Source: Alphaproteobacteria bacterium (GTDB lineage Bacteria; Pseudomonadota; Alphaproteobacteria; UBA828). From it: a DNA stretch of 64,000 bases. This document shows, in pieces, positions 18,110 to 18,265 of the stretch. Positions within the stretch are counted from its first letter, which is position 1; each line of letters opens with the position of its first letter. The stretch is from positions 32,001 through 96,000 of the forward strand of contig CAXXVO010000015.1 in NCBI GenBank assembly GCA_963422645.2. Reading direction: 5' to 3'. The notes under the pieces are model-generated. The model saw only the letters and a list, made by a program, of their open reading frames with translations. It was not told where the DNA came from and ran no database searches. The translations under genes and the position numbers were made by a program.

Positions 18110-18265
18110 CCGTCGCGCGGGCGGACTTCGGGCCACATCGGGGTAGCTTACCGGTCGCAGTCCGCAAGAGGGGCATCGTGAGCTGTGAAACCCGGCGACC
18201 ACAGAGGAGCACACGGGCGTCGCGTGGGTAGCGTTGTGCCGAATCCCAGAGAATTTTCACAGCAA
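18110..18265 (+). ncRNA. IS110-type non-coding end carried inside IS66-B
   Basis: Similar to 345-482 (CTTCGG(G/A)CCACATCGGGG core; TTTCAC(A/G)GCAA end); GCTGTGAAA 18182-18190 complements 18255-18263. Confidence 0.45.

Follow-up and report, generated by a model that had tools for sequence, protein, structure and literature searches.

How does DNA of the IS110 family come to lie within the tail of an IS66-family transposon, and what can it do there? The question is raised by IS66-B, one of many elements in the 64,000-nucleotide stretch of DNA analysed here (the window, G000:C16:32001-96000), which is a nest of insertion sequences. The original prediction held that the tail of IS66-B carries an orphan structured RNA or end of IS110 type and that a DDE transposon is thereby spreading a recombinase guide RNA, a donor site or both without the recombinase itself. 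The reading that we consider likely is a different one: positions 18056-18265 represent a transposase-less mini IS110 element that inserted into IS66-B once and has since been amplified by it, a donor-only passenger that lacks a guide region and is apparently immobile.

The carrier element and its passenger

IS66-B (16394..18281, + strand, 1888 bp) is recognised as a member of the IS66 family from its sequence and Pfam matches. Its one transposase gene (16508-18013) encodes a protein with matches to DDE_Tnp_IS66 (E 3.5e-39) and zf-IS66, and the element ends in terminal inverted repeats of 14 bp, flanked by a duplication of 8 bp of the target (16386-16393 and 18282-18289). Two parts of the right end are native to the element. 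The first extends from the transposase stop codon to the insertion point (18014..18055, + strand) and is conserved in relatives from sister species, and the second is made up of the last 16 bp (18266..18281, + strand), which include the terminal inverted repeat and are identified by sequence and by comparison with the sister relatives. Between these two parts lies the mini-element (18056..18265, + strand), a non-autonomous IS110-family unit of ~208 bp with no transposase gene, identified by its free-standing homologues, its absence from relatives of IS66-B and a covariance-model match. Where precisely the borders fall within the A-runs at 18056-18058 and 18264-18265, which act as recombination core, is ambiguous.

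The likeness to IS110 that was noticed originally is real, with every feature quoted being present and at most one base from where it had been placed. A 42-nt motif is shared by the IS110 element at the start of the window (345-386) and IS66-B (18116-18157), with 32 of 42 positions identical by our own count, and an 11-nt end motif (472-482 in IS110, 18255-18265 in IS66-B) agrees at 10 of 11 positions and stops 16 bp inside the IS66 terminus. The description of the segment as an IS110-type end stands in that it is derived from IS110 (covariance-model E 1.7e-7), but it understates what is there. Upstream of the earlier start, ~45 nt (18059-18103) share homology with the IS110 left end, so that IS66-B carries a whole mini-element rather than a fragment of a tail.

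Read from left to right on the + strand, the mini-element begins with a left-end part (18059..18103), comprising the right-donor side and the left subterminal inverted repeat (18097-18103), that is 77.5% identical to the left end of full-length IS110 over 40 nt. There follows a conserved hairpin domain (18104..18200), homologous to roughly the opening 95 nt of the 3' non-coding region in IS110 and defined by compensatory changes, model alignment and a consensus fold; the tail is 81% identical over 43 nt to the 3' non-coding region of a full-length IS110. Alignment places an invariant 18-nt motif (18126-18143) within this domain, and a 9-nt stretch at 18182..18190 is complementary to the right end (18255-18263). 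The unit closes with the right subterminal repeat and right end (18253..18265), that is, the left-donor side plus core, with the same end structure as is seen at 470-482 of the resident IS110. The base that follows the core of the subterminal repeat covaries between the left- and right-end repeats, in four classes.

The covariance model was built from seven 3' ends, six of which follow an IS110 transposase gene and the seventh of which comes from a mini-element in Binatia, with the IS66-B tails and the mini-elements collinear with them (lineages T3/T4) left out of the training set. It matches 18091-18265 on the + strand (37.1 bits, E 1.7e-7) over the whole length of the model and up to base 18265, and also matches 38467-38641 (+ strand, 38.1 bits), 8863-9037 (− strand, 39.8 bits) and, in a partial copy, 13235-13303 (+ strand, 16.5 bits, E 0.017). 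The copies that had been proposed within the elements ending at 18281 and 38657, in inverted orientation at 8849-9031 and, in part, up to 13276 are all real. The second copy (38432..38641, + strand, from sequence and covariance model) lies in the IS66-B element at 36770-38657. The inverted copy (8863..9031, − strand) has had its left-end side cut by an IS66-A insertion that starts at 9032, and the partial copy (13183..13276, + strand) retains the first ~94 nt and is broken by another insertion sequence.

Hairpin domain and guide-type segments in the IS110 clade

The resident IS110 element that opens the window (1..482, + strand) is the 3' part of the last unit of a head-to-tail array and consists of the transposase C-terminus (1-318) and the 3' non-coding region (319-482); its Pfam matches are to DEDD_Tnp_IS110 and Transposase_20. 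The complete unit is 1768 bp long and is present in 48 full-length copies in the genome (46 identical over all 1768 bp), and window base 482 is the true right end, at which all 48 stop. Comparison of empty and occupied copies of two repeated sites shows that the element recombines within A-runs, using a four-A target and contributing three As of its own. Since its right end with the A-run resembles this preferred target, a copy seems to make a new target at its own right junction. Tandem head-to-tail arrays of two to five units, with 0 or 1 base between units, are found at window 1-482 together with G000 C16:27179-32482, at C11:48115-56956 and C10:44759-50063, and on C8 and C5. Two copies (G000 C21:59024 and C8:774879-776646) are located 3-4 bp outside an IS66-B right terminus, which may be a coincidence given the density of both elements.

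The clade to which this element belongs has transposases of 416-426 aa, encoded in the relatives by a DEDD transposase gene of ~1.25 kb, and possesses subterminal inverted repeats that covary in the four classes noted above, together with guide-type blocks in the left-end region. The 3' non-coding region opens with ~95 nt that fold into a long and irregular hairpin, at the tip of which the invariant motif is located. Across seven sequences, and with the structure derived from the same alignment, 91.2% of the hairpin cells are paired, compared with 36-46% when the partners are slid, and 12 of 31 pairs have changed on both sides, compared with two to four in controls, most of these compensatory changes coming from two Binatia rows. 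None of 500 shuffles reached the observed values. By our own count, G-U cells exceed A-C cells (16 vs 4), which favours folding of the sense strand. A separate consensus fold indicates that the mini-elements retain a closed version of the domain; folded as single sequences, the two tails perform no better than shuffles (z −0.39 and −0.09). A putative sigma-70-like promoter, identified as a consensus match only, is found in the retained left end (18068..18097, + strand), pointing toward the hairpin domain and out of IS66-B. It agrees with the consensus at 9 of 12 positions, and one such match was found where 0.1 would be expected in shuffles. In three metatranscriptomes, the contigs recovered covered only the transposase parts of relatives, at 90-99% identity, and an RNA run bearing the same organism label yielded no contig.

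Where, then, do the guides of this clade lie? Durrant et al. describe left target and left donor guides that pair with the bottom strand and are identical to the top strand of the left target or donor plus core (PMC11208160). In the full-length relatives, the 5' non-coding region contains two blocks that resemble those of the IS621-type bridge RNA in this respect (PMC11208160), one corresponding to left target plus core and the other to left donor plus core. The first block (unit ~161-167 in the window element) reproduces the sequence of left flank and core and varies along with that flank, forming five classes (the window element and L048; L042 and L047; L063; L064; L066 and L067); counted manually, all 7 nt agree in four classes, and 5 of the 7 agree in L047 and L067. 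The second (unit ~227-233) reproduces the right end together with the core and tracks three right-end variants. In the consensus fold of the 5' non-coding region, neither block is paired. In locus L001 (G000 C16:30615-32582), guide-like 5' blocks at unit ~110-295 covary with the target and the right end. From six full-length relatives, and by analogy with IS621, the target and donor guides of the clade would appear to sit in the 5' non-coding region.

Guide segments of this kind are not found in the mini-element, in which no exact match of left- or right-donor-guide type reaches 6 nt. A right-donor guide, sought as a complement to the start of the left end, was found neither in the two non-coding regions of the six relatives nor in the mini-elements, and target-matching segments were not found in the 3' region of the clade.

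These results bear directly on the idea that the segment is an orphan bridge or seek RNA gene, carrying guides for its own donor site and spread by IS66-B, that acts in trans or as a decoy on an IS110 recombinase. The conserved structured domain, the promoter-like site upstream of it, the 9-nt complement to its own end and the presence of 48 related IS110 copies in the same genome are all points in favour. The guide-type blocks of the clade, however, are located in the 5' region that is missing here, and the conserved fold is that of a hairpin domain rather than of a two-loop bridge. The internal complements on which the original prediction drew do exist, in IS66-B (18182-18190 with 18255-18263, 9 nt) and in the resident IS110 (422-428 with 474-480, 7 nt), and a chance origin for the 9-nt stretch is unlikely (~150 positions / 4^9 by our own estimate), but the proposed covariation with the ends breaks down: an exact internal complement to the right end of at least 6 nt occurs in just two of 11 lineages (the window IS110 and the IS66-B copy), and since relatives with an identical right end have none, the claim fails across the family. 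The donor-guide block of the resident IS110 differs from the end of the mini-element, matching it over only ~5 contiguous nt by our own reading, and the genome offers no sign of interaction between the two, with no solo copies and no excisions. Rfam contains no family matching either tail or the full IS110, returning only weak chance matches far below gathering scores. We therefore regard an orphan guide RNA as improbable and favour a donor-only passenger.

Insertion into IS66-B and proposed origin of the mini-element

A scan for the core motif in one genome per species identified at least 49 loci, made up of three related groups and apparent chance matches to the motif. Among the matches listed, six loci carry the motif downstream of a transposase 88-96% identical to that of the window IS110. 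In the Binatia group, a transposase C-terminus is linked to the motif in the one locus, among the matches listed, that is long enough to show it, and the Binatia mini-element has a different internal junction while keeping the same parts. The variant of the motif seen in IS66-B occurs at eight or more loci in one gammaproteobacterial MAG and at least one locus in one alphaproteobacterial MAG, and no IS110 or IS66 transposase is present within 2.2 kb upstream of these loci. What is found there instead are free-standing units of 200-211 bp, collinear throughout with the IS66-B tail in alignment (start ~18056-18059, end 18265) and 86% (alphaproteobacterial copy) or 78-81% (gammaproteobacterial copies) identical to it. 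The units sit in differing flanks, several of them palindromic and repeat-like. Identical borders in unrelated flanks point to movement as a unit in these two other genomes; the genome of the window has no solo copies. At L048 and L069 (G045 C1), in the alphaproteobacterial MAG, a distance of ~0.9 kb separates the mini-element from a full-length IS110, and the transposase of that IS110 shares 96-97% identity with the one in the window.

Evidence on the history of the insertion comes from relatives of the carrier. The IS66-B tail was searched against 43 other genomes of the same family, seven of which hold relatives. None of the 34 matches listed to the last 582 bp of IS66-B passes query base 360 (window 18059), and in seven IS66-B relatives from four sister-species genomes the subterminal segment directly abuts the IS66 terminal repeat, the mini-element segment being missing. 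The same arrangement is seen in a metatranscriptome contig from a relative, in which the match ends at 18059 and the IS66 repeat comes next. In the genome of the window, by contrast, the mini-element follows 103 of 103 pre-insertion sites (there are 103 left and 99 right tail junctions), its copies are 98.5-100% identical, and a census of the whole genome found neither an empty IS66-B element nor a solo mini-element left end. Taken together with its absence from the sister relatives, this complete occupancy shows that there was one insertion, followed by amplification by IS66-B. The insertion site is an A-run that lies 16 bp in from the right tip of the element, and the ~103 copies bear out the proposal that a DDE transposon of the IS66 family has multiplied the segment. 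The IS66-B copies are too similar to each other to reveal any selection for keeping the mini-element.

The tail is itself a site of repeated interruption. Insertion sequences break it at 18097, 18145-18149 and 18251-18258 and at equivalent positions genome-wide, such that five interrupted copies start at query base 84, four pairs are split at 132-136 and at least five are split at 238-245. These recurrent positions are either insertion hot spots or composites that have been copied.

An alternative order of events has a full-length IS110 entering IS66-B and losing its middle in place, leaving the tail as a decayed remnant. Within this genome the outcome would be indistinguishable, and full-length relatives do insert beside IS66-B ends in the two cases described above. 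Against this, the junction between left end and 3' domain is identical and collinear in the free-standing copies from two other genomes, so the deletion must be the older of the two events, unless the free-standing copies themselves originated from IS66-B. We judge decay in place to be very unlikely. A chance or convergent resemblance between stretches of G+C-rich non-coding DNA, for which the unremarkable single-sequence folds might be cited, is refuted by the free-standing collinear copies with their exact shared borders, the sister relatives without the segment and the covariance-model matches (E ~1e-7), to which can be added the confinement in this genome of the exact 18-nt motif to the two element families (107 and 48 copies), and its probability is negligible.

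For the single insertion of a pre-formed mini-element, the following history can be proposed. An old internal deletion would have fused a left-end piece of ~45 nt with the structured 3' non-coding domain and the right end beyond it, and the resulting unit would have been mobilised in trans by a related recombinase together with its bridge RNA. It would then have entered an ancestral IS66-B once, at the A-run 16 bp inside the right terminus, and IS66-B, still able to transpose with the mini-element aboard, would have carried it to ~103 copies, with replication since then taking place solely within IS66-B. The mini-element retains the marks of a donor, namely its two ends, the pair of subterminal repeats and the hairpin domain with its conserved structure. 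Lacking the 5' guide region, it cannot choose its own targets.

What might have supplied the recombinase? The mini-element has none of its own, as originally proposed, and a search of this genome revealed no cognate gene whose ends match, the other IS110-family genes there being just 28-35% identical. The possible helper in the same genome is the related IS110 with its 48 copies, but both its ends and its donor-guide block differ from the end of the mini-element. Given that the block matches that end over ~5 contiguous bases and that no movement is seen, the resident IS110 is probably a poor helper, and the mini-element is likely to be inert at present. A blastn search of the gamma- and alphaproteobacterial MAGs found no autonomous parent of the mini-element lineage with near-identical ends. 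The gammaproteobacterial MAG contains one transposase reading frame of 66% identity, interrupted by an internal stop, plus fragments, and the alphaproteobacterial MAG contains transposase relatives of 97% and 68% identity. As no near-identical autonomous parent was found, we infer mobilisation in trans from the copy patterns only.

Relation to known elements and possible roles

The closest published case is that of MITEPpu9/ssr9, a transposase-less derivative of ISPpu9 (IS110 family) in Pseudomonas putida KT2440. This unit is flanked by the end boxes of its parent, forms its own minicircles, occurs both beside and away from the transposase gene and has been proposed to use the transposase of the parent (PMC12288879). 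As described there, it resembles the mini-element in being short and transposase-less, with ends of parental type and a small structured RNA region (PMC12288879). The mini-element differs in being a deletion derivative, in which the left end is joined to the 3' non-coding domain of the parent, and in being located inside another transposon to which, rather than to the IS110 machinery, it owes its copy number. ISfinder also lists MITE-like entries for the IS110 family, as noted in a further paper (PMC11602168). No report of an IS110-family mini-element within an IS66 element was found in the literature searched.

IS110-family elements are known at the ends of other transposons. IS4321 and IS5075, of the IS1111 group, insert into the terminal repeats of Tn21-family transposons; both are autonomous, and their preference for the terminal repeat is strict. 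The situation in IS66-B is similar in that an IS110-family element at the end of another transposon is carried along with it. It is dissimilar in that the unit is non-autonomous and has inserted just once, at an A-run close to the repeat, and signs of targeting are not seen.

The clade as a whole mixes features that separate the IS110 and IS1111 groups, combining guide-like 5' blocks and a transposase of 416-426 aa, both IS110-like, with two IS1111-like features, namely subterminal repeats that covary and a 3' non-coding region that is long and structured (PMC11187229, PMC11208160). Relative to IS621 of the IS110 group, the mini-element itself has no guide blocks, and the clade has a long structured 3' non-coding region and subterminal repeats of 7 nt or more, both of which are features of the IS1111 group (PMC11208160). 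These same two features, a long structured region downstream of the transposase and subterminal inverted repeats, are shared with IS1111-type seekRNA elements, from which the clade differs in that its 3' region lacks target-matching segments (PMC11187229). On transposase size, the same source gives 330-350 aa for IS1111, and a range of 416-426 aa fits the IS110 subgroup (PMC11187229).

Natural transposase-less derivatives are of value as they reveal what a bridge recombinase needs in cis at the donor. Here the donor consists of ~45 nt of left end and ~160 nt of right end with the hairpin domain and no guide region, making the mini-element a testable minimal donor for a clade of mixed IS110 and IS1111 type. 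There are consequences for the carrier too: the mobility of an IS66-family element is fully preserved even though 208 bp of foreign DNA have entered it 16 bp from the tip, which places a bound on the contiguous right-end sequence that the IS66 transposase needs. For annotation, ~100 "IS110-like" fragments in this genome are to be read as passengers rather than as decayed copies of IS110.

To describe the mini-element as a mere passenger may, however, undersell the hairpin domain. The domain has been kept in two independently deleted mini-element lineages and displays compensatory changes and an excess of G-U pairs, suggesting that it may be a functional RNA. More speculatively, and in our view rather doubtfully, it could be a second functional module, either an RNA or a donor-side cis element, of an IS110 clade with dual non-coding regions, with the IS66-borne copies modulating the recombinase system. 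Such a role would explain why the hairpin is retained in mini-elements formed independently of each other, and the 103 IS66-borne copies would then amount to a sponge for recombinase or donor, or to a set of outward-facing promoters, so that a DDE transposon would be modulating an RNA-guided recombinase system in the same genome.

Some further features of the window deserve mention. The right end of IS66-A is adjoined by an exact 90-bp tandem duplicate of itself (2861-3040), with terminal repeats at 2950 and 3040. The sole Rfam match above the gathering score in the window is a tRNA (24076-24162, − strand). Finally, just past the second IS66-B, positions 38910-39408 contain seven copies of a direct repeat spaced at 48 nt, with identities of 60-72%.
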